Positions 3,333 through 52,334 of a stretch of 64,000 nucleotides of DNA are shown piece by piece. The notes beneath the pieces are model-generated. The model was not told the origin of the DNA and made no database searches. It was given only the letters and a program-made list of their open reading frames with translations. Origin of the DNA: Elainellaceae cyanobacterium (GTDB lineage Bacteria; Cyanobacteriota; Cyanobacteriia; CAZCXK01); contig JBNPEG010000084.1 of the NCBI GenBank assembly GCA_051117555.1, forward strand, positions 26,933-90,932, written 5' to 3'. A program made the position numbers and the translations under genes. The first letter of the stretch is position 1. Each line of letters starts with the position of its first letter.

Positions 3333-3360
3333 TATCTCTGAGGTAAAGAGCGATATGGAA
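3333..3360 (-). promoter_or_regulatory. TTCCATA-N14-AGAGATA motif upstream of the S8 peptidase
   Basis: Reverse complement reads TTCCATA tcgctctttacctc AGAGATA, 36 nt before the ATG. Confidence 0.75.
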
Positions 3361-3399
3361 AATAGCTTGTAGGCGATCGCTCTTAATCAATTCATGCTG

Positions 3400-6300
3400 T
3401 TACAGGCCGTTGCCGATGAGGATGAAGGGTGCCCAGTAGTAAGGGTGGCTGAAACGAGTCTGAGATGATTGAGCTGTCGATTGCCCTTCATCAGTATCGA
3501 GTTCTTCTGGATTGGGTTCTATTGCAATGCCTCGATCATCGGAGCGATCGCCTGTTTCTTCCCCTCTGAGCAGACTCAGTTGAGCATCGCGCAAGGCTTG
3601 AGCAATGGTGCCTGGATTATCAGCGGTATTTTCAGCCAAGTTATGGTAAAAGCTCTGCATCAACTGACTGGTGCTGGCATCGTTCACCTGCCAAAGCGAC
3701 GCAACGACCGTATCCACGCCTGCATCAATAAAAGTCTGGGCAATACCTGAAATTTCTCTGCCGTCTAGTTCGGAAACTGCTGCTTGATTAGATGAGCGAC
3801 CGCCTAGAGCCGTTTCGCATGCTGAGAGCACCACCATGCTCAGAGACCGAAATTCGGCTCCAATATCTTGAATTTGGGAGATGCGCCAGTCTTCTTTGGT
3901 GCCCAGCATCAAGTAGGAGGAGTACAGGTTGGTGGGCATGTAGACGCCGTGGGTGGCGATGTGGAGAATGTTGTGCCCGGCCAAGCTGTAAAACACATTT
4001 TTATCAAACTGACTATTTAGTAACTCTTGACCCGAATAAATCCCGACTTCATCAGTGCGATCGCCACGCTGAACAATCACATCCAGTTCGTCGGGCACAT
4101 AACGCAGCCCCCTAAAACCGAACACATCGTCTGCCGGATCAACATCGGGTACTGCTTCTGACAGCCCCAAGGCCATTACGGAAATCGCGTTGGGGTCTTG
4201 GGGAAGAGGGGTATCTGCATGGCTCAACCAGGCGGCGGTGACGGTAGAAACAGTGTAGTTTTCAATCAGGTATTGGCTGCCGTCAAACAGCGCCGCCATC
4301 GGGATGTAGCGAACGGACCGATCCAGGGCAAAGACCAGGTTTTGAATATCATTTTGCTCTAGCTGCTCGCGCAACTGGGCAGGCATCAGCCAGTCATAAA
4401 GCTGCTGAGAAACCGCTTGAATCTCAGAGACAGGACTACACCGTCCCAATTCACATTGCGCCATCAGTTCATGGAAGCGAAACACCGCCTGGTTGATTTG
4501 CTCTTCACTGACGCCCTCCACATAAATGGGTTCTGCCAACCCTCCCTGAGTTGCCCACATGATTAAAAGCCGATCGTCTAGCACAATGGGATAAATCAAC
4601 ACCGTGCCTGGTTGAGCCTCAACGATTTTCTGCACATCCTCATAAATCAAGTCTTGTGGATCAGGGGCTTGATCATCAGCGGCGCGTCGCTGGCTCATAG
4701 CAGTTTCAAGCGTGCGAACGGCGTCGTTATAAGCAGTATTGCGTTCAGTGCGCTGTTGTTTGAGGCGGGTTAGCTCTTGTTGACCGCACTCTGGATCAGA
4801 TTCACAGGTGAGAATTGCCGAGCCCAACTGAATCAGGTCATAGTAGGCAGCCGCCGTGGTTTCTTCTTCAGGGAACTGATCGACCTCACGGGAGGCAACC
4901 CCACTGCGGGTATAGTCTCGAATTTCTTGAAGCTTTAGCAGCTCAATAACTTGCAGGGCTTCGAGGAGACGCCCTTGGGAAACGAGCAAGTCAGCGAGGC
5001 GGCGATAGGTATGGGAAACTGTATCAGTGTATGACTGCTGAAGTGCTTGGTCGAGCTGTTGAATGCCTCCCCGAATTTGTTCACGCGTATTGACGGACTG
5101 CTTTAAGAACACGATGGCAAGTTCGGGTTGGTCTTGAGTATCAAACAGGTGACCGATATTGTTAAGCGTAATGCCTTTTCCTGATTGATCCCCCACTTCA
5201 GTTCTGATGGCTAAGGCTTGCTGAAGGTACTCCAGCGCTTGCTGATACTGACCCAGATTGCGATACACCAAGCCAGTGTTGTTGAGGGTGGTGCCTTCAC
5301 CCGCGCGATCGCCTATTTCAATTGTGATAGCTAAGGCTTGCTGGTAATAGTCCAGTGCTTGAGAGTACTGACCTAGACTGTCATACACCCCGCCAATGTT
5401 GTTGAGGGTGGCTCCTTCTCCAGCGCGATCGCCAATGTCAGTTTTGATGGCTAAGGCTTGCTGATAGTGGTCCAGTGCTTGAGAGTACTGACCCAGAATG
5501 TCATACACCGAGCCAATATTGTTGAGGGTGACTCCTTCGCCAAATCGATCGCCCACTTCAGTTCTAATGGCTAAGGCTTGCTGGTAATAGTCCAGTGCTT
5601 GAGAGTATCGACCCAGATTGTCGTACACCAAGCCAATATTGTTGAGGGTGACTCCTTCGCCAAATCGATCGCCAATATCAGTTTTGATGGCTAAGGCTTG
5701 CTGATAATAGTCCAGTGCTTGAAAGTACTGACCCAGATTGACGTACACCCCGCCAATGTTGTTGAGGGTGGTTCCTTCTCCACGGCGATCGCCAATGTCA
5801 GTTTTGATGGCTAAGGCTTGCTGGTAATAGTCCAGTGCTTGAGAGTACTGACCCAGATTGGCGTACACCCCGCCAATGTTGTTGAGGGTGGTTCCTTCTC
5901 CAGCGCGATCGCCCACTTCAGTTCTGATGATTAAGGCTTGCTGATAATAGTCCAGTGCTTGAGAGTACTGACCCAGATGGATGTACACCAAGCCAATGTT
6001 GTTAAGGGTAGTTCCTTCGCCACGGCGTTGGCGGAACCTCTCTCCTGGAGAATTACCCCCTTCAGCGTGGATGGCTAAGGCTTGCTGGAAATAGTCAAAG
6101 GCTTGCTCATATTGGCCTAGTTTGAAGTACATTTCACCGATATTGTTGAGGGTGGCTCCTTCTCCAGCGCGATCGCCCACTTCGGTTCTGATGGCTAAGG
6201 CTTGCTGGTAGTAGTCGAGGGCTTGCTGATAGTCGCCCAGATTGCTATACACCAAACCAATGCCAGTGAGAATAGTTACTTCTCTAGATCGATCACCAGT

Positions 6301-6657
6301 TTCAACATTGATTTCTAATGCCTGCTGATAATAGTCCAGTGCTTGAGAGTACTGACCAACACTGTAAGCAATTGCCCCTAGCCCTGTTACGCTTCGTCCT
6401 TCTCCACGGCGATCGCCAATTTCTCGATAAATCTCGAACGCCCTTTGAAGCATCGATAGCGCTTGCTGATAGTCGCCTCGCTGCCAAAACTGAACTGACC
6501 TATCAAACAGTGCATCGGCTTCTGCTTGGCGATCGCCCTCTCCCACATCTTGAGCTAACGCCGTTGATTCCTTAAATGACAGAGAGAAGGGCGATGGAAC
6601 AATGAGCGATAGCAGAACCGTAGACGTCAACAAACCAAGCAAGCGGTGAGAGCGCAT
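3400..6657 (-). CDS. signal peptide + 40-aa TPR array + CHAT protease
   Basis: MRSHRLLG signal; TLNNIG/YQQALAI repeats; HIATHG and LSACET dyad; HPYYWAPFILIGNGL end. Confidence 0.93.
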   Translation of the reverse strand: MRSHRLLGLLTSTVLLSLIVPSPFSLSFKESTALAQDVGEGDRQAEADALFDRSVQFWQRGDYQQALSMLQRAFEIYREIGDRRGEGRSVTGLGAIAYSVGQYSQALDYYQQALEINVETGDRSREVTILTGIGLVYSNLGDYQQALDYYQQALAIRTEVGDRAGEGATLNNIGEMYFKLGQYEQAFDYFQQALAIHAEGGNSPGERFRQRRGEGTTLNNIGLVYIHLGQYSQALDYYQQALIIRTEVGDRAGEGTTLNNIGGVYANLGQYSQALDYYQQALAIKTDIGDRRGEGTTLNNIGGVYVNLGQYFQALDYYQQALAIKTDIGDRFGEGVTLNNIGLVYDNLGRYSQALDYYQQALAIRTEVGDRFGEGVTLNNIGSVYDILGQYSQALDHYQQALAIKTDIGDRAGEGATLNNIGGVYDSLGQYSQALDYYQQALAITIEIGDRAGEGTTLNNTGLVYRNLGQYQQALEYLQQALAIRTEVGDQSGKGITLNNIGHLFDTQDQPELAIVFLKQSVNTREQIRGGIQQLDQALQQSYTDTVSHTYRRLADLLVSQGRLLEALQVIELLKLQEIRDYTRSGVASREVDQFPEEETTAAAYYDLIQLGSAILTCESDPECGQQELTRLKQQRTERNTAYNDAVRTLETAMSQRRAADDQAPDPQDLIYEDVQKIVEAQPGTVLIYPIVLDDRLLIMWATQGGLAEPIYVEGVSEEQINQAVFRFHELMAQCELGRCSPVSEIQAVSQQLYDWLMPAQLREQLEQNDIQNLVFALDRSVRYIPMAALFDGSQYLIENYTVSTVTAAWLSHADTPLPQDPNAISVMALGLSEAVPDVDPADDVFGFRGLRYVPDELDVIVQRGDRTDEVGIYSGQELLNSQFDKNVFYSLAGHNILHIATHGVYMPTNLYSSYLMLGTKEDWRISQIQDIGAEFRSLSMVVLSACETALGGRSSNQAAVSELDGREISGIAQTFIDAGVDTVVASLWQVNDASTSQLMQSFYHNLAENTADNPGTIAQALRDAQLSLLRGEETGDRSDDRGIAIEPNPEELDTDEGQSTAQSSQTRFSHPYYWAPFILIGNGL
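6028..6051 (-). mobile_element. 24-nt in-frame insertion at a degenerate HIP1 position (SDR5-like)
   Basis: SPGERFRQ interrupts the TPR GDR motif; nearly the same insert is at 29050-29073. Confidence 0.65.
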
Positions 6658-6693
6658 AAATTCTCCAGCAGGATAATGACCGACACTACTATA

Positions 6694-6721
6694 TAGCTCT
6701 GAGGCTGGAGAGGGTATGGAA
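6694..6721 (-). promoter_or_regulatory. TTCCATA-N14-AGAGCTA motif upstream of TPR-CHAT 6657
   Basis: Reverse complement reads TTCCATA ccctctccagcctc AGAGCTA, 37 nt before the ATG. Confidence 0.75.
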
Positions 6722-7891: not shown

Positions 7892-7919
7892 TTCCATACC
7901 ATCTCCTGTGCCAGAGATA
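7892..7919 (+). promoter_or_regulatory. TTCCATA-N14-AGAGATA motif
   Basis: Exact match, 37 nt before ATG 7956. Confidence 0.75.
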
Positions 7920-7955: not shown

Positions 7956-8443
7956 ATGCGCTCTCACCGCTTGCTTGGCTTGTTGATGTTTACAGTTTTG
8001 CTATTGCTTAATGTGCCGCTGCGGATTATTGGGTTAGTGGGGGAGTTAAGGGCTGTAGCGCAAGATGTGGGCAAGGGCGATCGCCCTTGCCCCCTCTGAC
8101 ACCGATGATGGCCTACTCACCTCTACCAAAATCTTTTGGCTTAGACTTAAACGCTGAATTCGTCATCCTCAGTGCCTATGACACTGGGCGAGGGCCAATT
8201 ACAGGGGATGGCGTGATTGGGCTAGCGCGATCGCTGATTACCGCAGGCGTTCCCAGCGTTATGGTTTCATTGTGGTCGGTTCCCGACGCGCCCACCGACG
8301 AACTGATGACCAAATTCTATCGCCAGTTGCAGCAAAACCCCGACCAATCTCAAGCACTGCGTCAGGCCATGCTGATTACGATTCAAACTCATCCCCATCC
8401 TCGCAATTGGGCAGCATTCACGCTAATTGGGGAATCTGAATAA
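7956..8443 (+). pseudogene. internally deleted TPR-CHAT gene
   Basis: MRSHRLLG...GKGDR is joined at HIP1 (8077-8084) to a CHAT C-terminus (AIALAPSDTDDGLLTS...), with frameshifts and catalytic Cys changed to Tyr (LSAYDTG). Confidence 0.85.
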
Positions 8444-8457: not shown

Positions 8458-8485
8458 TTCCATAGCATTGCTCCGCATAGAGATA
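8458..8485 (+). promoter_or_regulatory. TTCCATA-N14-AGAGATA motif upstream of the sigma-like gene
   Basis: TTCCATA gcattgctccgcat AGAGATA. Confidence 0.75.
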
Positions 8486-8552: not shown

Positions 8553-10004
8553 ATGGATGAACCATCCAAATACTGGACATTCGTTCGACTAACAGCTGCT
8601 GGAAAACCTCAGGTTATTGAAGTTGAGCCTGCAAAAGGCTTTTTCAGGCGAGAGTTCCCTCATTTGGTAGGACAAACTGATATTGCTCATAACATGATTC
8701 AGCTTCGGTTGCATCAGCTTTACGACACTACGCCTATCAGAGGAGATGAAATGTCTGAAAGTTGGTTGGCTGAGTGCTGTCTTCGCTGTTTTATCTCAAA
8801 TAGAATTGAGCAAGTCTGTTCCCAAATCCAAAAACAGTTTGGTAAGCAGCATGGATTCACCCAATATGATCTGTTACCTTACGTGCTCAATGATGGTGAT
8901 TTGACTACTACAGGAAGAAGACGTTCTTCAAATTCTCAAAACTCCTCAGACCATCCGTCATTAGCTACAGAAATTTTACAAACGTTTACCCCGAAGCGAG
9001 GAAATTTAGGCAGTTGGGTAACTCGTTTGGTTCGTCATCATAAAGGTTTGAATAATGTTTTGCTTGAACACGGCGTTTATTTGTTGAGCGATTGGGCAAT
9101 TCTTAACGACACTCGGATTCCTCAGCTAGAGCGTATCTTGACCGAATTTTGCCCGCTTCCCAGACATGAGGTCTTTCAAGCGTCCGTATTGCTAGAGAGC
9201 TACCATGCAATCTATCGCCGAGATCGCATGAAACACCGTCAGGCAAATCGTCGATGCTTACCCCCATCCAACGAGCAGCTTTGCCGAATGAAACAATGGA
9301 TGCAAAACGAATTCTCAATGGAGCGATCGCCCGATCAAATTGTGGCAGGGCTTCAAGATTTGGCTCAGCATCTCCGAGACTACCGGATCTTTGTCCGAAG
9401 TAATTATCTACCTGTTCAATCTATGGATGATCCCGATCACCAGACTGCAATTGAGTCTATCCAAATGACGGATGAAAACGATGAAGAAGACGAGATCAAT
9501 GAGTTTCTTCACTTCTATCGTCAGCAGTTTGATGAGGGCTTAAACCAGGCTATAGCCAAGGTTATTCAACAACGGATTGAGTTCCTGAAGCGTAAGCGAA
9601 ACCCGAAACACCATGTTTATCTCACGGGCTTACAGCTATTTCATTGCCAAGGTCTCTCTATGAGTGCCATCGCCCCTCACATTGGTCTACAACGCCAAGA
9701 TCAAGTAACATACTTGCTCAAACTCAAATCACTCCGAGCAGATGTTCGACATACCTTGCTCACGATTCTGCGCGATCGCATTCTCAAAAAGGCCCAAGAC
9801 TACATTGATCCTGAGCGCCTTCATCATTTAGATCAGCAGATTGACGATGCTTTAGAATCGCATGCTAGTGCTGTAATCGAAGAAGCTCAAGATGAGGCAA
9901 GCACAGCCCGGAATCAACCCCTTCGCAGCGTGTTTGCTCGTCAATTATGTCGCCATCTTGACAAATTGATGATTGATTCCCCACCTTCCCACCCAAACCC
10001 TTAA
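8553..10004 (+). CDS. sigma-70-like / HetZ-related HTH regulator
   Basis: Region-2-like FTPKRGNLGSWVTRLVRH and C-terminal HTH GLSMSAIAPHIGLQRQDQVTYLL. ATG 8553 is preferred over GTG 8496, which lies only 11 nt after the motif. Confidence 0.6.
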   Translation: MDEPSKYWTFVRLTAAGKPQVIEVEPAKGFFRREFPHLVGQTDIAHNMIQLRLHQLYDTTPIRGDEMSESWLAECCLRCFISNRIEQVCSQIQKQFGKQHGFTQYDLLPYVLNDGDLTTTGRRRSSNSQNSSDHPSLATEILQTFTPKRGNLGSWVTRLVRHHKGLNNVLLEHGVYLLSDWAILNDTRIPQLERILTEFCPLPRHEVFQASVLLESYHAIYRRDRMKHRQANRRCLPPSNEQLCRMKQWMQNEFSMERSPDQIVAGLQDLAQHLRDYRIFVRSNYLPVQSMDDPDHQTAIESIQMTDENDEEDEINEFLHFYRQQFDEGLNQAIAKVIQQRIEFLKRKRNPKHHVYLTGLQLFHCQGLSMSAIAPHIGLQRQDQVTYLLKLKSLRADVRHTLLTILRDRILKKAQDYIDPERLHHLDQQIDDALESHASAVIEEAQDEASTARNQPLRSVFARQLCRHLDKLMIDSPPSHPNP

Positions 10005-10040
10005 CCACAATAATGACGATTGCCTCACCGGAGATTTACG

Positions 10041-11354
10041 ATGATGACTAATTCCCTATCTATTACCACTATGTTTGATGCCGATTCAGCCTCGCCCAAT
10101 ACTATTTTTCTATCCAACAGCCAGATTGACCAGGCGATCGCACTGAGTGAACAGGTACGAGAACCCGAGCAGTGGCAAGTCTATCGGCAGGCGATCGCTT
10201 TAACTGCATTCAAACAATGGCTCGACGAAAGAGATTCCCAACTATTCGTTCAAGATGATCGCTCGACCCTTCAGTTTCCAGAATATGCCAGCTTAATTAA
10301 TGCTGTTTGCAATATTCAAATTGGTCACTATCGAATCTGTCTCATTCCAACAGGAAGTGTCGCAGATACTGTAGTATTTTTGCCACGAGCAACCGTTGAA
10401 ATCTCAGACTTCGTTCCTCATCTATACGTGCTCATTGAGGTGTCAGATGAGTATGAACACGTCCAAATTAAAGGGTGTCTGCGTCGCGATTCGCTTTTCT
10501 ATCATCTAAAGTCTGTTCATTTGCCTACCAATGCTGACTGGACCTATTCAATTCCTCTAGACTGGTTTAGTCTTGACCCTGAGCGCATTCTTCTGTATCT
10601 TCGCTGCTTAGAACCCAATGCAATCCAAAGCCAAACAGTCGCTCCTCACGCACACGCTTCAGTTGCTCAGGTGAAAGCCGATCTAACTCTATTGCGTCCT
10701 CGTATTCAATCCAGCGATCGCCCGCTTTGGCGACTTTTAATGTGGGAGCAAGCATCAACTATCCTCTGCAATCCTGAGCTATTGGATCAAGTCTATTCCA
10801 GAACCCAGACAGGTGCGCACGCGTTGCAGGATTTGAAACAACGAGCCATCAACGTAGGATTGTGGCTACAAAATCAAGTAGATGAACTAGCACAGGAATG
10901 GATTTTACTCCCTCCGCCAGTACTTGAAACTGTAACCGCTCAAGCAATGCGATCGCCCGTCGAGCAGTTTGATGATGTCATTTCTGCCTTAACTCAGCAA
11001 GGCATGATGATTCCGTCTCACGCAAGAGGAGCCTATCAAGATCTGAAAGGAGCAAATGCGGCTCTTCGGCTGTATGCCGTCACGTGGAAATTGCCTGAGT
11101 TGTCTCATTCCGATGAATGGACTCTGCTGCTCATGCTAGGGGCACAACCTGGCGCCCAACTACCTGAAGGGGTTCGGCTTCAAGTTCACGACGAACATCA
11201 CGTCCTAGATGAACAAGTTTTGACCACCTCTACTTCAGATGCCCATCTTTTTTCACGGGTGATTGGAGATCTCAACGAGCAGTTTTCGGTCACAATTAAG
11301 TTGGCAAATGGGGAAGTGGTGACTCGTCAGCCCTTTGTATTTCACCTATCTTAA
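10041..11354 (+). CDS. DUF1822-like protein (candidate anti-sigma factor)
   Basis: Typical layout (FKQWLDER, HLYVLIEV, C-terminal LPEGVRLQV Ig-like domain) directly behind the sigma-like gene; start uncertain (10020/10041). Confidence 0.7.
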   Translation: MMTNSLSITTMFDADSASPNTIFLSNSQIDQAIALSEQVREPEQWQVYRQAIALTAFKQWLDERDSQLFVQDDRSTLQFPEYASLINAVCNIQIGHYRICLIPTGSVADTVVFLPRATVEISDFVPHLYVLIEVSDEYEHVQIKGCLRRDSLFYHLKSVHLPTNADWTYSIPLDWFSLDPERILLYLRCLEPNAIQSQTVAPHAHASVAQVKADLTLLRPRIQSSDRPLWRLLMWEQASTILCNPELLDQVYSRTQTGAHALQDLKQRAINVGLWLQNQVDELAQEWILLPPPVLETVTAQAMRSPVEQFDDVISALTQQGMMIPSHARGAYQDLKGANAALRLYAVTWKLPELSHSDEWTLLLMLGAQPGAQLPEGVRLQVHDEHHVLDEQVLTTSTSDAHLFSRVIGDLNEQFSVTIKLANGEVVTRQPFVFHLS

Positions 11355-11362
11355 AAGCCATC

Positions 11363-13822
11363 ATGCCTGAACAGTCTATATTTCAACTCAACGTTCATCA
11401 GGTCGACCAGCAATGTTTGTTTGAGTTGTCCTGGAGCCAGGGACGACGGCTTACAGCTCTGCTTAGTTATCCTCAGTCATTGATAGAACTCTATCAGCAG
11501 TGGCGACAGTTTTATCTCAGTTTCTATCGCACCGTTCAGATCCCGTTGGTTTTATCTCCACACGTGGAAAACGGACTGCGAGGCAGACGTGCAGAAAGCG
11601 GCAGCATTATCTCAACGCCGAAAGACTGGCAGGCTAAACTTGTTGAAGTCGAAGCAAAGTTTTTATACGCATTCCACCATTGGTTGCGCAGCGCCGAACT
11701 CTACGAGATCCGTGCCAAACTCGCTGAGGCAAGTCGTCTAAATAGAGATGGGCAACCCGTTGATCTGTTTCTCACCTGCACGCCTATTCAACTCTCTCGA
11801 CTACCGTGGGAAACGTGGGAAATAGGCACTGAATTTGCCTCAATGGGCGGAATCCGCATTGCCCGTTCTCCTGCCAATATCAGAGTAGAAGCAAATCCTA
11901 GAAATTCACTTCCGCGTCGCCGAACACGAATTCTGGCGATTTTGGGAGACGACACTGGCCTAAATTTCAAAGTCGACCGGGATGCGGTGCAGTCTCTTTC
12001 GCGCTTTGCAGATATAGAGTTTGTTGGCTGGCAACCGGGCAAATCCATTGACGAGCTAAAAACTGAAATCACCCAGGCGATCGCTCATCCGCTGGGTTGG
12101 GATATCCTATTCTTTGCTGGACACAGTAACGAAACTACTATGACCGGCGGAGAACTGGCGATCGCTCCCCAAACCCACATCGCCCTGCGTGACATTGCTC
12201 CCCAACTGGCGATCGCCAAAGAACGGGGTTTGCAGTTTGCTATCTTCAATTCCTGCAACGGCATCAATATTGCCGAAACGCTCATTGACTTGGGACTCAG
12301 TCAAGTGGCTGTGATGCGAGAACCCATTCACAATCGAGTTGCACAGGAGTTCCTAATCCGGTTCTTGCAAAGTCTTGCTGACCACAAAGATGTTCATGAG
12401 TCATTGATTACAGCCAGTCAGTTTCTAAAGACGACTAAGAACCTGACCTATCCGTCTGCGTATTTGGCACCCTCTCTATTTCGCCATCCCGACTCGACGC
12501 TGTTTCGTGTTCAACCGATAGGTTGGAAGCAACAATTCAGGCGACTTATGCCCAAGCGCTATGAGGCGATCGCTCTAGCAGTTTTGATGATTCTGGGTAG
12601 TTATGGTTCTGTTCAATATCGACTGTTAGAAGGCAGAGTTCTGGCTCAGGCTCGCTACCGTCAATGGACACACCGAGTTCAGTCTGATAAACCTTCCCCC
12701 TTACTTCTCGTTCGAGTGGATGGAGAGTCCCTTGATCGAGAAAATATCTTGGAACGGAACCCAATTCCACCTGATTATCTGGCTAGTTTGATAACACAAT
12801 TATCGGCTCGTGACGTAAGTGTAATCGGAATTGATTATTTGATCGACCGCCAACAAGAAGGCAGTGATTTGATGGCGAAGGCTGTAAGGGAGGTAGCAGG
12901 ACAAGGAACGATATTTGTATTTGCAAGTATCCAAGATAATCATGCTCGGTGGATGAAAACCACGCCAGAGATTGCCGATCCAGTCTATAGCATTCATGGG
13001 GATGCAGCCCGTGCTTGGGGAAATGACTATCGGATGCCACTCTTAATTGAAGGACGAGAACATCTCCTCCCGTTTGCACTATTGATGGTGTTGCTCCAGC
13101 AAAATTCTGGAACTTCCTCTATATCAAATGAACCTGTTGGCTTAGCCATTTTTGATAACCCCGGTCAGCTTACAGAATTGTTTTCGCCTCGCCTCTATTG
13201 GCAGTCGATTTCACGCCTGAGTTACCGTTTCAAACAATATTGGTTGCATCCAATTACCGATTTTTCGCTCCCACCTCATCAGGTTTATCAATCAATACCA
13301 GCCTGGAAGCTGCTAGAACAGCCAAACGCGCCTGAATTGAAGCACTTACCCCAGCAAGCGGTGATGATCGCAGCAGGAGGCTATGAGGAAGCAGGATTAA
13401 TTCCGGGTGATGATAATGAAAACTTTGAAGCTCCAGACGCGATGAGCTACTGGTATCGACAGGAGAATCCTCATAACCCTTATCGTGAGATGACTGGGGG
13501 CGAACAGCATGCCTATCTCTTCCATCATTTTTTGAATCGTCGATTTGTTATCCCTGTCCCCAATCTGTGGATGATATTACTTGCAGCGATCGCTGGAAAG
13601 GTCACAGTTTTGCTACTCGCGCGACAGCGTTCAACGAATACCAAGGCATACCAGCGTTATGAAGGGTTGATTGGTTCAGGACTTTTAATTAGCACCGCAA
13701 TATATGCGCTGATGAGCCTTGAGTTATATGTATCGACACTGGCGATCGCATTTCCTATTGTTCTTCCCATCGCAGCCTATTGGGGCTATGTATTGCCATC
13801 GTTATTTCGAAATAAACCATGA
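11363..13822 (+). CDS. CHAT protease - TM - CHASE2 sensor - 3TM membrane protein
   Basis: LPWETW, FFAGHS and FNSCNG dyad; a TM segment; LLLVRVD and VIGIDY CHASE2 motifs; three C-terminal hydrophobic helices. Confidence 0.85.
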   Translation: MPEQSIFQLNVHQVDQQCLFELSWSQGRRLTALLSYPQSLIELYQQWRQFYLSFYRTVQIPLVLSPHVENGLRGRRAESGSIISTPKDWQAKLVEVEAKFLYAFHHWLRSAELYEIRAKLAEASRLNRDGQPVDLFLTCTPIQLSRLPWETWEIGTEFASMGGIRIARSPANIRVEANPRNSLPRRRTRILAILGDDTGLNFKVDRDAVQSLSRFADIEFVGWQPGKSIDELKTEITQAIAHPLGWDILFFAGHSNETTMTGGELAIAPQTHIALRDIAPQLAIAKERGLQFAIFNSCNGINIAETLIDLGLSQVAVMREPIHNRVAQEFLIRFLQSLADHKDVHESLITASQFLKTTKNLTYPSAYLAPSLFRHPDSTLFRVQPIGWKQQFRRLMPKRYEAIALAVLMILGSYGSVQYRLLEGRVLAQARYRQWTHRVQSDKPSPLLLVRVDGESLDRENILERNPIPPDYLASLITQLSARDVSVIGIDYLIDRQQEGSDLMAKAVREVAGQGTIFVFASIQDNHARWMKTTPEIADPVYSIHGDAARAWGNDYRMPLLIEGREHLLPFALLMVLLQQNSGTSSISNEPVGLAIFDNPGQLTELFSPRLYWQSISRLSYRFKQYWLHPITDFSLPPHQVYQSIPAWKLLEQPNAPELKHLPQQAVMIAAGGYEEAGLIPGDDNENFEAPDAMSYWYRQENPHNPYREMTGGEQHAYLFHHFLNRRFVIPVPNLWMILLAAIAGKVTVLLLARQRSTNTKAYQRYEGLIGSGLLISTAIYALMSLELYVSTLAIAFPIVLPIAAYWGYVLPSLFRNKP

Positions 13823-13831
13823 GGAAAAGTC

Positions 13832-14665
13832 ATGTTCGGTATCTACTCAGCAATCCGTATATTTCCAAGACTTTGCTTACTTCTTTGTGCTTCCCTCCCA
13901 TTTGCGATATGGGAAGTTGGAATCCTTAATATACGTGCGGCACATGCAATATTTTTTCAAGCACAAAACTCATCTCCAAATCCATCACCGCCGCCGCCAA
14001 TTCAGGGAATTTCTAGTCTTCGTACTCTTTGGAATACTATATTCAGCAGTCCACCTCCACCTCCCCCCCAACAAGGAATTTCAAGAGGACGTTATTTTTG
14101 CTTGATTGCCCCATATTCATTTGAAGAAGAAGTATGGAGCGATCGCCCAACGTTAGTATGGCAAGGTTCGGCGAGCAGCGTAGAACTCTATCAACAAGGC
14201 GGTTCAGAACCCATTTGGACATATCCCCTATCTGAATCGGATCAAATCCCTGGACTAGATGGTGCCCAGACAGAAGAATTTGATGAACCCGTCTATCAAG
14301 TTACCTATGATGGCGAACCACTTGAACCCGGACAAGCTTATGTATGGAGGGTGATTCAACCGTTCGCTCCTCGTCCGATTTCCTTCCAGATAATGACCAC
14401 TGAAGAGCAAGAGAAAATTACGGATGATTTGACTGCTTTAGAATCTCAGCTTGAAGCCGAAGACACAGATGAAACTCTCGCCATTCAAAAAGCGGACTAC
14501 TTTGCAGATCAACAACTCTGGTCAGACTTTTGGCAACAAATTCTCGCAGTTGAATCTCCATCCGATGAATTAAAAACTGTTTTGGATGAAACCATTGCAG
14601 AATTGTGCCCTCCGCCACCAGACCCTGATGCCAATTCGAGAGAATTCAGGGGTTCTGTGCGTTAA
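13832..14665 (+). CDS. exported DUF928-like protein
   Basis: Signal peptide, Pro-rich linker, ISRG..CLIAP, RPTLVW, LEPGQAYVW, YFADQQLWSD. Confidence 0.75.
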   Translation: MFGIYSAIRIFPRLCLLLCASLPFAIWEVGILNIRAAHAIFFQAQNSSPNPSPPPPIQGISSLRTLWNTIFSSPPPPPPQQGISRGRYFCLIAPYSFEEEVWSDRPTLVWQGSASSVELYQQGGSEPIWTYPLSESDQIPGLDGAQTEEFDEPVYQVTYDGEPLEPGQAYVWRVIQPFAPRPISFQIMTTEEQEKITDDLTALESQLEAEDTDETLAIQKADYFADQQLWSDFWQQILAVESPSDELKTVLDETIAELCPPPPDPDANSREFRGSVR

Positions 14666-14807: not shown

Positions 14808-14835
14808 TTCCACAGGGTCTCCAGCCTCAGAGCTA
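14808..14835 (+). promoter_or_regulatory. TTCCACA-N14-AGAGCTA motif variant
   Basis: One mismatch; 35 nt before ATG 14870. Confidence 0.7.
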
Positions 14836-18034: not shown

Positions 18035-18062
18035 TTCCATACCCGCCGTTGTCCCAGATATA
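18035..18062 (+). promoter_or_regulatory. TTCCATA-N14-AGATATA motif variant
   Basis: One mismatch; about 145 nt before ATG 18207. Confidence 0.55.
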
Positions 18063-22132: not shown

Positions 22133-22474
22133 ATGACAACATCTCATCTGCCAACCCTCTTGCAATCTCGATTAGCGACCACCCCAGAGCAGGTGAAAGC
22201 CTTTTGCCAGCGGTGGTGTATTTCAGAATTTGCTCTTTTTGGATCTGTTTTGCGACCGGACTTTCAACCTGAAAGTGACGTGGATGTTTTGGTAAGTTTT
22301 AATGAGTCGGGAGACAACCGTTGGAGCATCTTCGATCTAATTCGGATGCAGCAAGAACTAGAATCCCTTTTTCAACGAGAGGTCGATTTAGTAGAAAAAG
22401 CGGGTCTGCAAAATCCATATCGTCGGGCTGAAATCTTGGATACCTGTCGGGTTATCTTTAGCGACAAATGGTAA
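22133..22474 (+). CDS. minimal nucleotidyltransferase (MNT) antitoxin
   Basis: LFGSVLR..F..SDVDVLV and REVDLV motifs. Confidence 0.9.
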   Translation: MTTSHLPTLLQSRLATTPEQVKAFCQRWCISEFALFGSVLRPDFQPESDVDVLVSFNESGDNRWSIFDLIRMQQELESLFQREVDLVEKAGLQNPYRRAEILDTCRVIFSDKW

Positions 22475-26509: not shown

Positions 26510-26537
26510 TTCCATATCTGCTTCATGCCTAGAGATA
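26510..26537 (+). promoter_or_regulatory. TTCCATA-N14-AGAGATA motif
   Basis: Exact match, 43 nt before ATG 26580. Confidence 0.75.
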
Positions 26538-27199: not shown

Positions 27200-27227
27200 T
27201 TCCATATCTGTGTATCTACCAGAGATA
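27200..27227 (+). promoter_or_regulatory. TTCCATA-N14-AGAGATA motif
   Basis: Exact match, 41 nt before ATG 27268. Confidence 0.75.
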
Positions 27228-28166: not shown

Positions 28167-28400
28167 AGAAGCCGGGGATCTAAATCGTCACATAAACCTC
28201 TGATGAGCAATCCCTAAAGTTTTCTTCAAATTCCATACTGTCTTCTTACTCATGGAGATATATTGATGTCGGTCATCATCCCCTCGGAGAATTTATGCGT
28301 CCCCATCGCTTTCTCAGCTCGGTGATATCTACGGTTCTGCTGGCGCTTATTATTCCACCATCTTCTCACGATGTTTACGGCATAGCATCGCATTGGCATG
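28167..28400 (+). pseudogene. decayed promoter/signal-peptide cassette of the MRSHR family
   Basis: Right IR arm, TTCCATA at 28231 with the second box mutated (ATGGAGA), GGAGA RBS, MRPHRFLSSVISTVLLALIIP from 28295; no TPR follows. Confidence 0.75.
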
Positions 28401-28440: not shown

Positions 28441-28468
28441 TTCCATACCTCTCTTTGGCTCAGAGATA
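28441..28468 (+). promoter_or_regulatory. TTCCATA-N14-AGAGATA motif
   Basis: Exact match, 42 nt before ATG 28510. Confidence 0.75.
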
Positions 28469-37177: not shown

Positions 37178-37205
37178 TTCCATATCTGATTTGTGGTCAG
37201 AGCTA
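37178..37205 (+). promoter_or_regulatory. TTCCATA-N14-AGAGCTA motif
   Basis: TTCCATA tctgatttgtggtc AGAGCTA upstream of the CAP/RTX gene. Confidence 0.7.
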
Positions 37206-37292
37206 TGTATTGGTGAAGGGTGATGAACTCTCCATTATTTGATCACAATCAACTGCAACATTCTAATCAAAGCAAAAGGAACTTCGTGCACA

Positions 37293-38904: not shown

Positions 38905-39225
38905 ATGTCCACCAGTGAATTAGAGGTTCAGCTACATAATCTAACCCCGGCGCGACGGGCGATCGCCCTCCAAACGCTGACTCAAACTTTAGGCAGCGGT
39001 GCACGGGGGATTACTAAAACAGACGGAGTATGTAGCGGAGAAGCCTGTATCGCTGGAACGCGCATACCCGTTTGGCTTCTTGTGGAGTCTCGTCGTCAAG
39101 GGGTTCGTGAAGCTCAACTACTCAACGACTATTCCCATATTAGTGCGGCTGATTTGGTCAATGCTTGGGCTTATGCAGAGGCTTATCCTGAAGAAATTGA
39201 AGCCGCAATTCAAAAAAATAAATAA
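38905..39225 (+). CDS. DUF433 family protein (antitoxin-like, orphan)
   Basis: GVCSGEACIAGTRIPV motif. Confidence 0.88.
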   Translation: MSTSELEVQLHNLTPARRAIALQTLTQTLGSGARGITKTDGVCSGEACIAGTRIPVWLLVESRRQGVREAQLLNDYSHISAADLVNAWAYAEAYPEEIEAAIQKNK

Positions 39226-39845: not shown

Positions 39846-39873
39846 TTCCATACCCTCTCCTGCACCAGAGATA
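39846..39873 (+). promoter_or_regulatory. TTCCATA-N14-AGAGATA motif
   Basis: Exact match, 37 nt before ATG 39910. Confidence 0.75.
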
Positions 39874-46833: not shown

Positions 46834-47484
46834 TTATACAGACTGGACTGCATCTGAAGTTAGAACGGTAGATTCTCCTGAAATAATGCCAATGAGAATG
46901 CGGAATAGCGGGTCTAGCTCCTCTGGAATGCGATAGAGGGTCGGGTCTTCTATCAAATGTTTGGGCGATCGCTGAAAGATACCAAACTGCCAAATTTGTC
47001 CAGTGCTCACCGCGCCATAGAGAATAGGAGTTTCGCTCTCCGTCCACTGATCAAGGGCGACGAGTTCGGCTCCAAGTTGAGTAAAGCCTGCATACAGGTT
47101 TTCCCGTTTTGCTTCAATAATCAGCAGATTGCTGGCCTGAAAGTAGTAATCCAAGGTGCCCCTCAGCCAATTGCTAATCGTTAGCGGATACTCAACCCGC
47201 ACTTTTTGCTGAGTTTGCCGACACACTTCACTGAGAATTGGCGCAATCAAAAATTCGCGCCGTGCTTGTTCGCTGCTGATTGTTGTAAATTGAAAGGCTG
47301 CATTCAGGCGATCGCACAATTCTTGTAACTGCAACTCTCCACTGTAGTAGGGCAAAGAGAGCCGCTGCATGGCGACTGTGCATCCGAGATCCGCTAGAAT
47401 GTCATCCCGCTCATAGGGCAATTCTGCATAGCGAGCAAAGGTGTAGGTCTCCTCCGGCTTGAGAATTTTGGGCTTGCGAGACAT
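46834..47484 (-). CDS. PD-(D/E)XK-like hypothetical protein
   Basis: GTLDY..LLIIEAK, GFTQL, YGAVSTGQIWQF. Confidence 0.75.
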   Translation of the reverse strand: MSRKPKILKPEETYTFARYAELPYERDDILADLGCTVAMQRLSLPYYSGELQLQELCDRLNAAFQFTTISSEQARREFLIAPILSEVCRQTQQKVRVEYPLTISNWLRGTLDYYFQASNLLIIEAKRENLYAGFTQLGAELVALDQWTESETPILYGAVSTGQIWQFGIFQRSPKHLIEDPTLYRIPEELDPLFRILIGIISGESTVLTSDAVQSV

Positions 47485-47595
47485 GATGACTTCTTTAGCT
47501 GATTGGTTTTCTCCATTCTAAAGCGGTTCTCAAGGGATTCATCCAGGCATAGATTCTCTTGTTAGACTGAAAGCAACTGTTCTGGATGTTGCCTT

Positions 47596-48234
47596 ATGGT
47601 CGCAGGGTCTAGTATTACAGAATCCATTAAAAGCATTCATGATTTGCAGAGCCAGTTTAACCTGCGGCAGACTGAGCACGATGACTTCTTCCATGAATGG
47701 ACGGGTTCTCTGCCTCGTCTAAATGAATTTGAGGAAGCTGGCGTTGAGCGCATCAAGCGTCGATATGACTACCATCGCGTTGATGGATTACTGCTTGAGG
47801 GCACGATTAATGTCGTGGTGGCTGCCCCCCTACTCGAATTAGCAGGATTTCTTGACCCACCGTTTCACATCCAATCTCCCTATGGCATTGCCCTAGAACT
47901 TGATGATCCTGATGAAACAATTCGCGGATTTATTGACGTACTGGTCGTTCAAGAGCAGCTTTGGATTTTAGTCGTCGAGTCAAAGCGCACTAGCATTCCT
48001 GTTCCAGCAGCATTACCTCAACTGCTGGCCTATATGCTGGCGAGTCCTCACTCAGAACGGCCTATATTTGGGATGGCAACGAATGGGGATGAGGTCGTGT
48101 TTCTCAAGCTTCAGCACGGCCAACAGCCAGAGTATGACGCTTCTCGAACGTTTTCCCTGTTTCCACGACGCCATGAATTGGGTGAAGTCTTGCAAATCAT
48201 GAAACGTCTAGGCCATGTTATTTTAAACGATTAG
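47596..48234 (+). CDS. PD-(D/E)XK protein, HsdR-N-like
   Basis: GFIDVLV..LVVESKR, ALPQLLAYM, GMATNG. Confidence 0.78.
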   Translation: MVAGSSITESIKSIHDLQSQFNLRQTEHDDFFHEWTGSLPRLNEFEEAGVERIKRRYDYHRVDGLLLEGTINVVVAAPLLELAGFLDPPFHIQSPYGIALELDDPDETIRGFIDVLVVQEQLWILVVESKRTSIPVPAALPQLLAYMLASPHSERPIFGMATNGDEVVFLKLQHGQQPEYDASRTFSLFPRRHELGEVLQIMKRLGHVILND

Positions 48235-48691: not shown

Positions 48692-48719
48692 TTCCATACC
48701 CTCTCCTGCGTCAGAGATA
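48692..48719 (+). promoter_or_regulatory. TTCCATA-N14-AGAGATA motif
   Basis: Exact match, 37 nt before ATG 48756. Confidence 0.75.
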
Positions 48720-48755: not shown

Positions 48756-51700
48756 ATGCGCTCTCACCGCTTGCTTGGTTTAGTGACGTCCACAGTTCTG
48801 CTGTCGTTTGTTGTTCCGGTATCCTTGTCGCCGTCGTTTAGAGAATCAGCGGCATTAGCTCAAGAGGCGGGAGAGGGCGATCGCAAAGCCGAAGCTGATG
48901 CACTCTTTAATGGCTCAATTCAGTTTTGGCAGCGAGGCGACTATCAACAAGCGCTATCGATGCTTCAACAAGCGTTAGAGATTTATCGAGAGATTGGCGA
49001 TCGCCGTGGGGAAGGAGCCACCCTCACTGGCATTGGCGCGGTGTATCGCAATCTGGGTCAGTACTCTCAAGCCCTTGACTATTATCAGCAAGCATTAGAA
49101 ATCAATATTGAAACTGGCGATCGCCAGGGAGAAGGCACCACCCTCAACAACATTGGCGTGGTGTACGACAGTCTGGGTCAATATCAACAAGCGCTGGACT
49201 ATTACCAGCAAGCCTTAGCCATCCGAACTGACATTGGCGATCGCCGTGGAGAAGGAGTCACCCTCAACAACATTGGCGCGGTGTACGACAATCTGGGTCA
49301 GTATCAGCAAGCGCTGGACTACTATCAGCAAGCCTTAGCCATCACAACTGTCATTGGCGATCGATCCGATGAAGGGAATATCCTCGACAACATTGGCCAG
49401 GTGTATCACAATCTGGGTCAGTATCAGCAAGCGCTGGACTACTATCAGCAAGCCTTAGCTATCCGAACTGACATTGGCGATCGCCGTGGAGAAGGCACCA
49501 CCCTCAACAACATTGGCGGGGTGTACGACAGTCTGGGTCAGTATCAGCAAGCGCTGGACTACCTTCAGCGAGCCTTAGCCATCAGCATTGACATTGGCGA
49601 TCGATCTGGAGAAGGCACCACCCTCAACAACATTGGCGGGGTGTACGACAGTCTGGGTCAGTATCAGCAAGCGCTGGACTACTATCAGCAAGCCTTAGCC
49701 ATCCGAACTGACATTGGCGATCGCCGTGGAGAAAGAGTCACCCTCAGCAACATTGGTGAGGTGTATCGCAATCTCGGTCAGTATCAGCAAGCACTGGGCT
49801 ACTTTCAGCGAGCCTTAGCCATCAGCATTGACATTGGCGATCGCGCTGGAAAAGGAATAGCCCTTAATAGTATTGGCGCGGTGAGTGGCAATCTCGGTCA
49901 GTATCAGCAAGCACTGGACTACTTTCAGCGAGCCTTAGCCATCAGCATTGACATTGGCGATCGATCTGGAGAAGGCACCACCCTCAACAACATTGGCGGG
50001 GTGTACGACAGTCTGGGTCAGTATCAGCAAGCGCTGGACTACTATCAGCAAGCCTTAGCCATCCGAACCGAAGTGGGCGATCGCCGTGGAGAAGGACGGA
50101 CCCTCAACAACATTGGCTTGGTGTATCGCAAGCTGGGTGAGTATCAGCAAGCGCTGAACCACTATCAGCAAGCCTTAGCCATCCGAACTGAAGTGGGCGA
50201 TCGTTCTGGTGAAGGAGTCACCCTCAACAACATTGGCGTGGTGTACGACAGTCTGGGTCAATATCAACAAGCGCTGGACTATTACCAGCAAGCCTTAGCC
50301 ATCCGAACTGACATTGGCGATCGCGCGGGTGAAGGAACCACCTTCAACAACATCGGTGCGGTGTATCGCGATCTGGGTCAGTATCAGCAAGCGCTGGACT
50401 ATTATCAGCAAGCCTTAGCCATCACAACTGTCATTGGCGATCGCCGTGGAGAAGGACGGACCCTCAACAACATTGGCTTGGTGTACGACAGTCTGGGTGA
50501 GTATCAGCAAGCGCTGGACTATTACCAGCAAGCCTTAGTCATCATCACTGACATTGGCGATCGCGCGGGTGAAGGAGCCACCCTCAACAACATTGGTTAT
50601 ACGCTAGAGTCGCTTGGTCAGTCTGAATTAGCAATTGTTTTTCTCAAAGAATCCGTCAACCAGTGGGAAGAAATTCGCGGTGACATTCGCGGACTTTCCA
50701 TTGAACAGCAGCAGTCTTTTGCAGACAGCATTTCATCCAGCTATCGTCGTCTCGCCGACCTCCTCCTGCAAGCCGATCGCGTCCTCGAAGCCCAACGAGT
50801 CCTTGACCTGCTCAAAGTCCAAGAGCTTGACGAATACTTGCAAGATGTCCAGCGCAGTGCCCAAACCGAAGACGGAGTTCCACTATCTAATCCTGAAGTA
50901 CAAATTCAAGAGCGTCAGCAAGCTATTACCAATCGAGCCGTTGCCATTGGTGAAGAACTGGCTCAACTCCGTCAAATCGAGCCTGAAAATCGCACGCCAG
51001 AGCAGATGGCTCGCATCACCGAACTAGAAGCAATGCAGGCTGAAGTCATTGCCGAGTTTGAAGACTTTATCTACAGTGATGAAATCCAGGCACTGGTGGC
51101 TCAGCTTACCCGCGAGACTCGTCCCCAAGATTTGGTCAATGAACTCGATGAACTGATCACTATTCAAGACAACCTCCGCGCCCTCGAACAAAACGCAGTG
51201 TTGCTCTATCCGTTGATTCTCGACGATCGCATTGAACTTGTGCTCGTAACGCCTAACAGTCCACCAGCCCGCTATCCCATCAACGTCAGCCGCAGCGAAC
51301 TCAATGCCGCCATCGTCGAGTTTCGACAGGCATTAGAAACACCCACTAGCAATCCAGAAGCGATCGCCCAACAGCTCTACAACTGGCTGATTCAACCCCT
51401 CGCATCAGACCTCGAAGCCATCAACGCCGAAACCATCATCTACGCTCCTGATGGCGTACTGCGCTACGTGCCCCTAGCCGCTCTGCATGATGGCGATCGC
51501 TGGTTAGCCGAACGCTTTCGCGTCAACCACATCACCGCCGCCAGCCTCACCAATCTCAACCTACAGCCAGCCGCTCAGCCTGACATTTTAGCGGCTGCCT
51601 TTAGCGAAGGCTCCGTTGAATTTCAAGTGGGCGATCGCAACTTTGCCTTTGATGGGTTGCCCTATGCAGGTCAAGAAGTCGAAAACTTGGTCGCGGCGTT

Positions 51701-52295
51701 TCCTGGAACCACCAAGCTAATGGACGAAGACTTTAGCCCCACCGCAACCGTGGGCATCATGGATGACCACACCATCGTCCACCTGGCAACCCACGCCGAA
51801 TTTGTGCAAGGCACTCCTGCCGAGTCATTCATCGTGTTTGGCAATGGCGATCGCGTCACCCTCGAAGAAATTAAGCAGTGGCGAGGTCGCTTTCGGCAGA
51901 TTGATTTGATTGTGCTAAGTGCCTGTGAGACAGGTCTAGGAGAAAGCTTGGGTAACGGGGAGGAAATTCTCGGCTTTGGCTACCTAATGCAGCGGGCAGG
52001 CGCACGAGCGGCGATCGCGTCTCTCTGGGCTGTGAGCGACGGAGGCACTCAAAACCTAATGGATGCCTTCTACACTGCTATTCTCAATGGCTACAGCAAA
52101 ACCGAAGCCTTGCAACGAGCGCAAGTGGCTCTAATCCGCAATGACGCATCGGTGTTAGAACCATCCCAGCGAGGCATTCAGCTCGAATCCACCGAAACAG
52201 GTGAACCCTTGGAAATTCAGAGCAGATCCCTGCAAGGACGCCTCGGTCATCCCTACTATTGGGCTCCCTTCATCCTCATCGGTAACGGACTATGA
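48756..52295 (+). CDS. signal peptide + long TPR array + CHAT protease
   Basis: About 14 near-identical 120-bp TPR units; HLATHA and LSACETG. Confidence 0.93.
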   Translation: MRSHRLLGLVTSTVLLSFVVPVSLSPSFRESAALAQEAGEGDRKAEADALFNGSIQFWQRGDYQQALSMLQQALEIYREIGDRRGEGATLTGIGAVYRNLGQYSQALDYYQQALEINIETGDRQGEGTTLNNIGVVYDSLGQYQQALDYYQQALAIRTDIGDRRGEGVTLNNIGAVYDNLGQYQQALDYYQQALAITTVIGDRSDEGNILDNIGQVYHNLGQYQQALDYYQQALAIRTDIGDRRGEGTTLNNIGGVYDSLGQYQQALDYLQRALAISIDIGDRSGEGTTLNNIGGVYDSLGQYQQALDYYQQALAIRTDIGDRRGERVTLSNIGEVYRNLGQYQQALGYFQRALAISIDIGDRAGKGIALNSIGAVSGNLGQYQQALDYFQRALAISIDIGDRSGEGTTLNNIGGVYDSLGQYQQALDYYQQALAIRTEVGDRRGEGRTLNNIGLVYRKLGEYQQALNHYQQALAIRTEVGDRSGEGVTLNNIGVVYDSLGQYQQALDYYQQALAIRTDIGDRAGEGTTFNNIGAVYRDLGQYQQALDYYQQALAITTVIGDRRGEGRTLNNIGLVYDSLGEYQQALDYYQQALVIITDIGDRAGEGATLNNIGYTLESLGQSELAIVFLKESVNQWEEIRGDIRGLSIEQQQSFADSISSSYRRLADLLLQADRVLEAQRVLDLLKVQELDEYLQDVQRSAQTEDGVPLSNPEVQIQERQQAITNRAVAIGEELAQLRQIEPENRTPEQMARITELEAMQAEVIAEFEDFIYSDEIQALVAQLTRETRPQDLVNELDELITIQDNLRALEQNAVLLYPLILDDRIELVLVTPNSPPARYPINVSRSELNAAIVEFRQALETPTSNPEAIAQQLYNWLIQPLASDLEAINAETIIYAPDGVLRYVPLAALHDGDRWLAERFRVNHITAASLTNLNLQPAAQPDILAAAFSEGSVEFQVGDRNFAFDGLPYAGQEVENLVAAFPGTTKLMDEDFSPTATVGIMDDHTIVHLATHAEFVQGTPAESFIVFGNGDRVTLEEIKQWRGRFRQIDLIVLSACETGLGESLGNGEEILGFGYLMQRAGARAAIASLWAVSDGGTQNLMDAFYTAILNGYSKTEALQRAQVALIRNDASVLEPSQRGIQLESTETGEPLEIQSRSLQGRLGHPYYWAPFILIGNGL

Positions 52296-52306
52296 AATCT
52301 AATTTT

Positions 52307-52334
52307 TTCCATACCTGGAATTTCTTTAGAGATA
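52307..52334 (+). promoter_or_regulatory. TTCCATA-N14-AGAGATA motif upstream of the caspase
   Basis: TTCCATA cctggaatttcttt AGAGATA. Confidence 0.7.

Follow-up and report, generated by a model that had tools for sequence, protein, structure and literature searches.

Which protein reads the bipartite motif that recurs before the protease genes of an Elainellaceae cyanobacterium, and what would hold that protein in check? The locus, called the window below, is a 64,000-nucleotide (nt) stretch of contig JBNPEG010000084.1 (assembly GCA_051117555.1; positions 26,933 to 90,932, forward strand), part of contig C13 of the genome that we label G000. The motif, TTCCATA-N14-AGAG(A/C)TA, was taken by an initial annotation of the letters for the -35/-10-like elements of a dedicated alternative sigma factor. 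That proposal is supported by the spacing, the sense intergenic placement, a copy before the candidate sigma gene itself, conservation, enrichment and co-variation. We put at roughly 80% the probability that the motif is a promoter read by the divergent sigma-like protein encoded at 8553-10004, judging from sequence comparisons and structural models.

The motif in the window and the genome

With at most one mismatch allowed, the window holds 13 copies of the motif (11 exact and two with one mismatch) against 0.04 expected by chance, and 13 was reached in 0 of 100 shuffles. All 13 positions and strands listed by the initial annotation are correct; its figure of 12 copies was a miscount, there being 11 exact copies in the window and 12 in the genome. 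Exact matches at spacer 14 number 12 across the whole genome (6.06 Mb), every one of them on contig C13, and none exists anywhere in it at spacers 10-13 or 15-19. The twelfth exact copy lies immediately left of the window (C13:25957), which makes 14 intact sites in all, and these are intergenic or at the extreme end of a gene, in the same orientation as the gene that follows. Nine copies end 34-42 nt upstream of an ATG; the annotation had the same count at distances of 35-43 nt, one too many. The other distances to a start are 67 nt (8458) and 144 nt (18035), and 276 nt (52307) and 33 nt (37178) to mechanically assigned TTG starts. In a weight-matrix scan the 13 island sites scored 28-33, ahead of the next site at 21; the 14808 variant scored 15.6, and no convincing target lay outside contig C13. 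Calling the motif island-wide is apt for this genome and fails in many relatives, in which sites are scattered over many contigs.

The copies and the genes that they precede are as follows.

3333..3360 (-): motif copy, 35 nt before the S8 subtilase gene 1123-3297
6694..6721 (-): motif copy of the duplicated family, 36 nt before the TPR-CHAT gene 3400-6657
7892..7919 (+): motif copy of the duplicated family, before the internally deleted TPR-CHAT relic 7956-8443
8458..8485 (+): motif copy, predicted autoregulatory promoter, upstream of the sigma-like gene
8553..10004 (+): predicted divergent sigma-70-type factor, 483 amino acids (aa) from its ATG, judged from fold models; no Pfam or NCBIfam family
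10041..11354 (+): DUF1822 protein (PF08852, E 5.8e-39), predicted anti-sigma factor
11363..13822 (+): CHAT-CHASE2 protein (PF12770 and PF05226), putative membrane sensor-protease
13832..14665 (+): fourth operon gene, signal-peptide-like start, no family match
14808..14835 (+): one-mismatch copy (TTCCACA) derived from the duplicated family, 34 nt before the TPR-CHAT gene 14870-17725
18035..18062 (+): one-mismatch copy (AGATATA), before the PPC-TPR-CHAT gene 18207-22055
26510..26537 (+): motif copy, 42 nt before the 178-aa gene 26580-27116, signal-peptide-like start, no family
27200..27227 (+): motif copy, 40 nt before the TPR-only gene 27268-28020
28231..28258 (+): decayed copy with a broken second box, upstream of a surviving piece of the duplicated TPR-CHAT gene start
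28441..28468 (+): motif copy, 41 nt before the TPR-CHAT gene 28510-31800, which opens a run of trypsin, TPR-CHAT and CHAT genes up to 37139
37178..37205 (+): motif copy, before the CAP plus RTX-repeat gene 37239-38279
39846..39873 (+): motif copy of the duplicated family, 36 nt before the TPR-CHAT gene 39910-42705, followed by trypsin and TPR-CHAT genes up to 46831
48692..48719 (+): motif copy of the duplicated family, 36 nt before the TPR-CHAT gene 48756-52295
52307..52334 (+): motif copy, before the caspase (C14)-DUF4384 gene 52611-55160 and the trypsin gene 55231-56241

Part of this repetition comes from gene duplication. The copies at 6694, 7892, 39846, 48692 and 14808 share duplicated flanks, with 68-95% identity among the first four and 58% between 14808 and 6694, and the decayed copy at 28231, correctly placed by the initial annotation before a pseudogene, visibly belongs to the same family, that of one TPR-CHAT gene start. 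Because five intact copies share these flanks, only about 10 of the 14 intact sites count as independent, with 19-35% identity between their flanks. To that extent the claim that the motif is not just a product of duplication needs qualifying.

The sigma-like protein

The protein encoded by the gene behind the copy at 8458 was modelled with AlphaFold2 (8553-10001; 81 sequences) at a predicted local distance difference test (pLDDT) score of 86.5. The model suggests a sigma-2 fold (residues ~42-176), a SANT/Myb-like insertion (~181-295) and a sigma-4-like helix-turn-helix (HTH; ~352-400). Sigma factors filled the top seven rows of a VIA fold search with the full model, the best being SigA domain 2 (Z 8.2, root-mean-square deviation 3.3, 99 aligned, residues 46-174), and the top five rows of a Foldseek search (E 0.03-0.13). 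Residues 181-295 were similar to SANT/Myb domains, and residues 335-418, folded alone, retrieved sigma region-4 chains in six of the eight top rows (Z 5.3-5.8). Neighbours in the ESM Atlas at 0.91-0.95 carry Sigma70_r4 (PF04545) on 12-87% of their members. The predicted order of sigma-2, insertion and sigma-4 points to a sigma factor like those of the extracytoplasmic function (ECF) type, with insertions, on fold scores that are middling; sequence searches of the protein against solved structures gave nothing meaningful.

The family is large. One search returned 866 proteins, and 595 clusters were obtained at 50% identity (E up to 1e-10), and 56 of the 401 genomes sampled from the phylum contain matches. 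Members that bear a name are called 'hypothetical', and every relative whose record gives an organism is from a cyanobacterium, filamentous or other.

Conservation of the motif and its targets

The best 80 loci of the 303 relatives found were analysed, and 60 further loci brought the set to 140. In 50 of the 80, T[GC]CATA-N14-AGA..TA lies at most 600 nt upstream of the sigma gene on the same strand, as against 0-3 loci at any other spacer. The usual form in relatives is TGCATA-N14-AGA..TA, and the same architecture is kept before sigma genes that are just 27-50% identical. Across the 140 loci there are 124 distinct matches against three for the reversed pattern. Five of the 124 lie inside open reading frames (ORFs); a sense start follows within 350 nt for 109 and an opposite-strand start for 23. 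The distance to the start is at least 31 nt for 105 of the 109 sense sites, which gives a floor of about 31 nt.

Of these 109 sense-start rows, 59 were scored as standing directly before the sigma gene. Among the 50 others, 33 were scanned for families, after omission of six DUF1822 genes, three sigma ORFs with longer starts, six duplicates or near-duplicates and two short ORFs. The scanned targets comprise 14 TPR or TPR-CHAT proteins, three subtilases, two DUF1822 proteins, four others and 10 without a family, and are thus the same kinds of gene as in the window. The motif precedes a DUF1822 gene in eight relatives. Whole-genome counts covered 71 genomes, of which 21 with divergent or TCCATA-type sigmas were counted separately. 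TGCATA-N14-AGANNTA matched 272 times (control 27; median 7) in the 30 genomes that carry a core-type sigma, and in the 20 that lack a sigma match it matched 31 times (control 15; median 1); kin are not independent in these counts, and 'no match' does not equal absence. A metagenome scan with the HTH region returned one locus, of the TGCATA type.

A few sites in relatives are of separate interest. At locus L221 (genome G055) a short sigma gene, itself a few kb downstream of the long one, has TGCATA-N14-AGAAGTA before it, which hints at a cascade from long to short sigma. Plasmid pNPUN01 of Nostoc punctiforme PCC 73102 encodes a sigma (NPUN_RS34160) and a DUF1822 protein (RS34165) and carries the motif at record positions 93257, 93472, 107928 and 118553. 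Two copies (L138:5254-5496) stand before a response regulator gene as well as a LanM/Nif11/NHLP bacteriocin cluster, and the regulon may extend to genes for ribosomally synthesized and post-translationally modified peptides. In genomes G061 and G062 (L118, L122, L124, L125, L127) two small genes form a conserved divergent pair and are served by back-to-back TCCATA promoters about 80 nt apart. Neither hexamer is present as text in the Trichodesmium primary-transcriptome table srep06187-s3.xls.

Co-variation of the upstream box and the recognition helix

Arg387 occurs in 246 of 265 aligned proteins, and most of the family combines it with TGCATA; versions with His, Lys, Asn, Gln or Cys at this position are also present. 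The clade of the window protein has Tyr (as in the window protein itself), Ala, Ser or Phe there, together with Arg381 and Asp383, and the box TCCATA. In genomes whose sigma lacks Arg387 the ratio of TCCATA to TGCATA sites was 15:3 (G000), 6:0 (G061) and 6:2 (G062), and an excess of TCCATA predicted beforehand was then borne out in G445 (5:1), G447 (8:0) and G444 (8:1); G448, with Arg387 kept, gave 0:2. Genomes with Val383 carry TGAATA sites instead (12 in G068, 10 in G146 and 7 in G354, against 0, 1 and 0 TGCATA sites), mostly clustered round the sigma gene, and loci L240 and L243 have TGAATA self-promoters. A distant clade (W-clade) keeps TGCATA or TGTATA and has (A/G)CATCTA as the second box before its sigma genes, a variant matched genome-wide 9, 8, 7, 4 and 12 times against 4, 14, 2, 3 and 6 in the controls. 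The idea that Arg381 and Asp383 alone cause TCCATA was rejected: L141, L142 and L148 have both residues and keep Arg387 and TGCATA.

That this protein lineage reads the motif is strongly supported by co-variation; as to which helix residue sets which base of the box, the evidence is weaker. Each specificity switch probably was a single evolutionary event, with about three such events in all.

A predicted anti-sigma factor and the proposed release of sigma

The sigma-like gene heads a four-gene operon (8553-14665) that encodes the 483-aa protein, the DUF1822 protein, the CHAT-CHASE2 membrane protein and a secreted-looking protein. In 70 of the 74 loci with room for it, a DUF1822 gene directly follows sigma. 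The predicted complex of sigma and DUF1822 scored 0.80, against 0.00 for the best of three controls, on a measure whose mark is reached by 116 of 157 solved complexes and by two of 215 mismatched pairs; runs agreed in at least 77% of contacts, with a partner pLDDT of at least 74. The predicted interface joins the N-terminal half of DUF1822 to the conserved sigma residues 174-195, the insertion and helix 383-407, and by occupying that helix it would block reading of the -35 box. These models support binding of DUF1822 to sigma, and it is likely that DUF1822 acts as the anti-sigma factor of the 8553-10004 protein.

The CHAT-CHASE2 protein consists of an N-terminal region (about 130 residues precede the CHAT match), CHAT with His and Cys present, a hydrophobic segment, CHASE2 and C-terminal hydrophobic segments. 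All 52 of the 52 relatives aligned retain the His/Cys dyad. The fourth gene occupies the slot that DUF928 takes in the neighbouring operon, and its relatives lie downstream in 40 of 59 loci. Two more operons in this genome (L084:4794-9934 and L085:163-4251) combine a short sigma, DUF1822 and a CHAT-CHASE2-like protein, and both adjoin genes associated with clustered regularly interspaced short palindromic repeats (CRISPR), namely RAMP-like and Cas6/WYL/Cas10-like ones as judged from translations.

From these pieces we infer the transcription start, direct binding, anti-sigma action, proteolysis and the signal as parts of one scheme. The sigma-4-like helix would read the upstream box of T(C/G/A)CATA type as the -35 element, and AGA..TA, 14 nt downstream, would be the -10 region; if the hexamer spans -35 to -30, the second box would span -15 to -9. 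Sigma would drive its own operon and the mostly exported TPR-CHAT, subtilase, trypsin and caspase genes. DUF1822 would keep sigma inactive by covering its inserted domain and the -35-reading helix, until an outside signal sensed by CHASE2 made the cytoplasmic CHAT protease active, DUF1822 was cut and sigma came free. Proteolytic release is proposed by analogy with HetF-PatU3-HetZ and Csx29-Csx30-CASP-sigma, and we see even odds that this particular CHAT protease brings it about.

Relation to known systems

The gene trio of a CHASE2 caspase-fold protein, DUF1822 and a sigma-like gene was catalogued by Kaur et al. (2021; PMC8195603), who suggested that the sigma may regulate many genes and proposed autopeptidase activation. 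That study is computational only and the word 'promoter' is absent from its main text; the passages of it considered here contain no regulon, no anti-sigma role for DUF1822 and no 480-aa form with insertions. As in its neighbourhoods of EACC2-caspase, sigma and DUF1822 genes, sigma and DUF1822 stand here beside a caspase-fold protein with a variable C-terminal sensor. New relative to those passages are the promoter, the regulon and the code that would link helix to box, of which we found no account in the open-access literature, subscription papers and unread supplements lying outside that search. DUF1822 is named in just two papers of the open-access literature searched, and the second has it solely in a variant table.

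A close parallel, to judge from parts of the papers cited, is the sigma-HetZ system of Anabaena PCC 7120, which uses a -35 element TCCGGA with a -10 element TGnA at 16-17 bp and is inhibited by PatU3 (PMC13342950), itself cut by HetF-CHAT (PMC9457339). Common to both are an oversized ECF-type sigma of filamentous cyanobacteria that carries insertion domains, a co-transcribed inhibitor that covers sigma-4 and the insertions, a CHAT protease that cuts the inhibitor (both predicted here), a sigma-driven inhibitor gene (here suggested by the eight relatives with a motif before DUF1822) and a -35 element starting with TCC (PMC13342950; PMC9457339). The two differ in their boxes, T(C/G/A)CATA-type with AGA..TA at 14 bp as against TCCGGA with TGnA at 16-17 bp (PMC13342950), so that the window motif TCCATA-N14-AGAG(A/C)TA is distinct from the DIF1 promoter form TCCGGA-N16/17-TGnA; they also differ in the inhibitor, which is DUF1822 here, and in the targets, exported proteases and not heterocyst genes.

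Two further systems share parts of the design, again as described in the portions of the papers considered. In the type III-E CRISPR system of CASP-sigma, Csx30 and Csx29, in which Csx29 cuts Csx30, there are likewise a CHAT protease, a soluble anti-sigma factor (predicted here) and sigma motifs inside the own locus; it is triggered by target RNA of the CRISPR RNA via Cas7-11 (PMC10028731), whereas the protease here is a membrane CHASE2 receptor, and no Cas gene was found with Pfam among the ORFs scanned in the window. In DdvS/DdvA of Myxococcus xanthus several promoters in a single CHAT-rich island are driven by one ECF sigma (PMC11506125), much as proposed here, but the predicted anti-sigma factor and the protease are separate proteins here and the outputs are exported proteases.

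Weighing the alternatives

A number of results count against the proposed promoter, its reader or its switch. No Foldseek match of the sigma-like protein reaches E <=0.001; the best Z for the HTH part belongs to a response-regulator domain (EsrB, 6.1), and other HTH proteins, response-regulator and DeoR domains among them, resemble it at similar scores, a Z below about 8 being one that a common helical arrangement can produce. The window protein has no Sigma70_r2, Sigma70_r4 or TIGR02937 match among the Pfam and NCBIfam profiles, sigma families are absent from the 25 families shown for its 81 relatives, and among four scanned relatives just one matched TIGR02937, with an E of 0.005 that falls far short of the cut-off. 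In 30 of the 80 loci no exact motif occurs within 600 nt, in some due to a contig end; three core-type genomes have only 1-2 matches, and 4-5 matches occur in three genomes that have no sigma match. On the side of co-variation, G450 has just one TCCATA site (1:0) and a TCTATA self-promoter, G013 has one TCCATA against two TGCATA sites with a TCCATA-type sigma fragment whose gene is cut by the contig end, G019 has just two TGAATA sites, and L157 has Val383 without TGAATA. In a FastTree tree of 93 of the 144 rows the TCCATA group is one clade (support 99), and seven of eight Val383 rows fall into one weakly supported group (85); since each switch is probably a single event, some other residue that the clade has in common could be responsible. 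As to the switch, CHAT-CHASE2 lies within 2.5 kb in just 41 of 65 loci, and a cleavage site in DUF1822 was not identified.

The first of these two points speaks for the alternative that survives best, in which promoter and sigma are right and the switch is something other than cleavage of DUF1822 by CHAT-CHASE2: the receptor might cleave itself, a different protease from the island might act, or proteolysis might play no part. Autopeptidase activation is what Kaur et al. proposed (PMC8195603), and in the part of the DdvA study considered here the trigger for CHAT activity remained unknown (PMC11506125). Weighed against this are the invariant CHAT dyad, cytoplasmic by domain order, and the precedents of HetF-CHAT (PMC9457339) and Csx29 (PMC10028731), and we regard such a switch as unlikely, if well worth keeping in mind.

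Distinctly improbable is a reading of the motif as an operator, at which the same protein would bind two half-sites through two DNA-binding domains as an ordinary activator or repressor while a housekeeping or other sigma starts transcription. Both boxes contain ATA, 21 bp (two helical turns) apart, the protein has an extra SANT/Myb-like domain and an HTH that is not specific to sigma factors in its resemblances, and co-variation would fit an operator equally well. Yet the sigma-2 fold, the part that binds core polymerase, precedes the HTH in sigma order, the 31-nt floor and the strict sense orientation suit a promoter core better than an operator, and the motif is neither a palindrome nor a true direct repeat.

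That another factor (of HetZ type, one of the short DUF1822-linked sigmas or a global sigma) reads the motif, with the 483-aa protein a mere member of the regulon, is very improbable. Candidates do exist in this genome, namely HetZ-related genes and three short sigma-like genes beside DUF1822, and the HetZ box TCCGGA is two bases off TCCATA, as given in the portion of the paper considered (PMC13342950). The motif, on the other hand, is confined to the island, is enriched only in genomes with the 483-aa family and changes with its helix, and the neighbouring short sigma has a different motif of its own. The HetZ profile NF037964 matches three other places in the genome and not 8553-10004, and hhalign against this genome's HetZ-related proteins (a two-sequence profile) gave a probability of 1.4%, no detectable homology; since separate HetZ-related genes exist and the profile comparison finds nothing, the sigma-like protein is not HetZ. 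No HetZ chain appeared in the fold searches (structure library to April 2026), and the short DUF1822-linked sigmas show no profile similarity to the 483-aa family either (probability 2.9%).

The notion that the copies are remnants of repeated gene-start duplication or of a small mobile element, to which the five intact copies and the decayed one on shared flanks and the two copies before broken genes might be taken to point, is largely refuted by the roughly 10 sites that keep boxes and spacing amid unrelated flanks and spacers and by the architecture held before such diverged sigma genes, and we give it next to no credence.

The protease island and its neighbours

By Pfam the island holds nine full TPR-CHAT genes, one CHAT-only gene, one subtilase, four trypsin-like genes, a caspase-DUF4384 gene, a CAP/RTX-repeat gene and a ShlB-type transporter. 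The His and Cys motifs are kept in all nine TPR-CHAT proteins, and most target proteins start with a signal-peptide-like stretch, as judged by eye. The 178-aa gene at 26580-27116, which the initial annotation called YbjN-like, has no match in Pfam or NCBIfam. Broken TPR-CHAT relics lie at 7956-8443, 28295-28400, 56699-57061 and 57758-58282 (an internal deletion, start remnants and a CHAT tail), which show that the protease arsenal turns over fast.

Uma2, MNT-HepT, DUF433 and DDE genes are interspersed in the island without the motif; with no additional window site at two mismatches, the earlier observation that it is lacking before the Uma2, toxin-antitoxin and insertion-sequence genes holds. 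An MNT-HepT pair, a DUF433 gene and two related divergent genes (22133-22836, 38905-39225, 46834-48234) are inserted between protease genes in this way, one of the two related genes having a weak HSDR_N match. The island ends with ShlB/Omp85 transporter and trypsin genes (58206-61064, minus strand) that have no upstream motif at up to two mismatches.

A second bipartite motif, CTGCACAAAA-N15-TGAGA, occurs left of the window (C13:14325-25865). It has only four exact matches in the genome (C13 14352(-), 14415(+), 16627(+) and 25837(+)), and these surround a further DUF1822 operon, whose ECF-like sigma is short (219 aa; C13:13614-14270, minus); at other spacings the pattern gives 0-4 scattered matches, so that the evidence for it is the clustering. 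Among upstream regions of relatives one of 29 matched, with two mismatches. A TPS-domain gene at L001:3277-6657, left of the window, adjoins the short-sigma operon. Both promoter types precede a 545-aa gene without a family (C13:26044-27681, its tail being window 3-749; sites at C13:25837 and 25957), which may be controlled by both sigma systems.

Significance

The set of sigma, DUF1822 and CHAT genes is common in filamentous cyanobacteria, and we found no tested function for it in the literature. The promoter consensus names target genes in any genome, supplies a reporter and predicts single-residue specificity switches, which makes the pathway directly testable, for instance in the Escherichia coli-reconstituted Anabaena polymerase system used for HetZ. 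It would tell what switches on these organisms' many exported TPR-CHAT proteases, and the natural TGCATA, TCCATA and TGAATA variants could give orthogonal sigma-promoter pairs for cyanobacterial engineering. Tentatively, and at somewhat less than even odds, we suggest that a large unnamed family of oversized sigma factors in filamentous cyanobacteria may act as caspase-gated transmembrane switches with private promoters, in which two or three helix residues would set a -35 base and diverged copies would run insulated regulons side by side. The output would be an inducible extracellular TPR-CHAT arsenal, possibly an envelope-level immune or cell-contact response, in parallel to HetF-PatU3-HetZ and built from unrelated parts.

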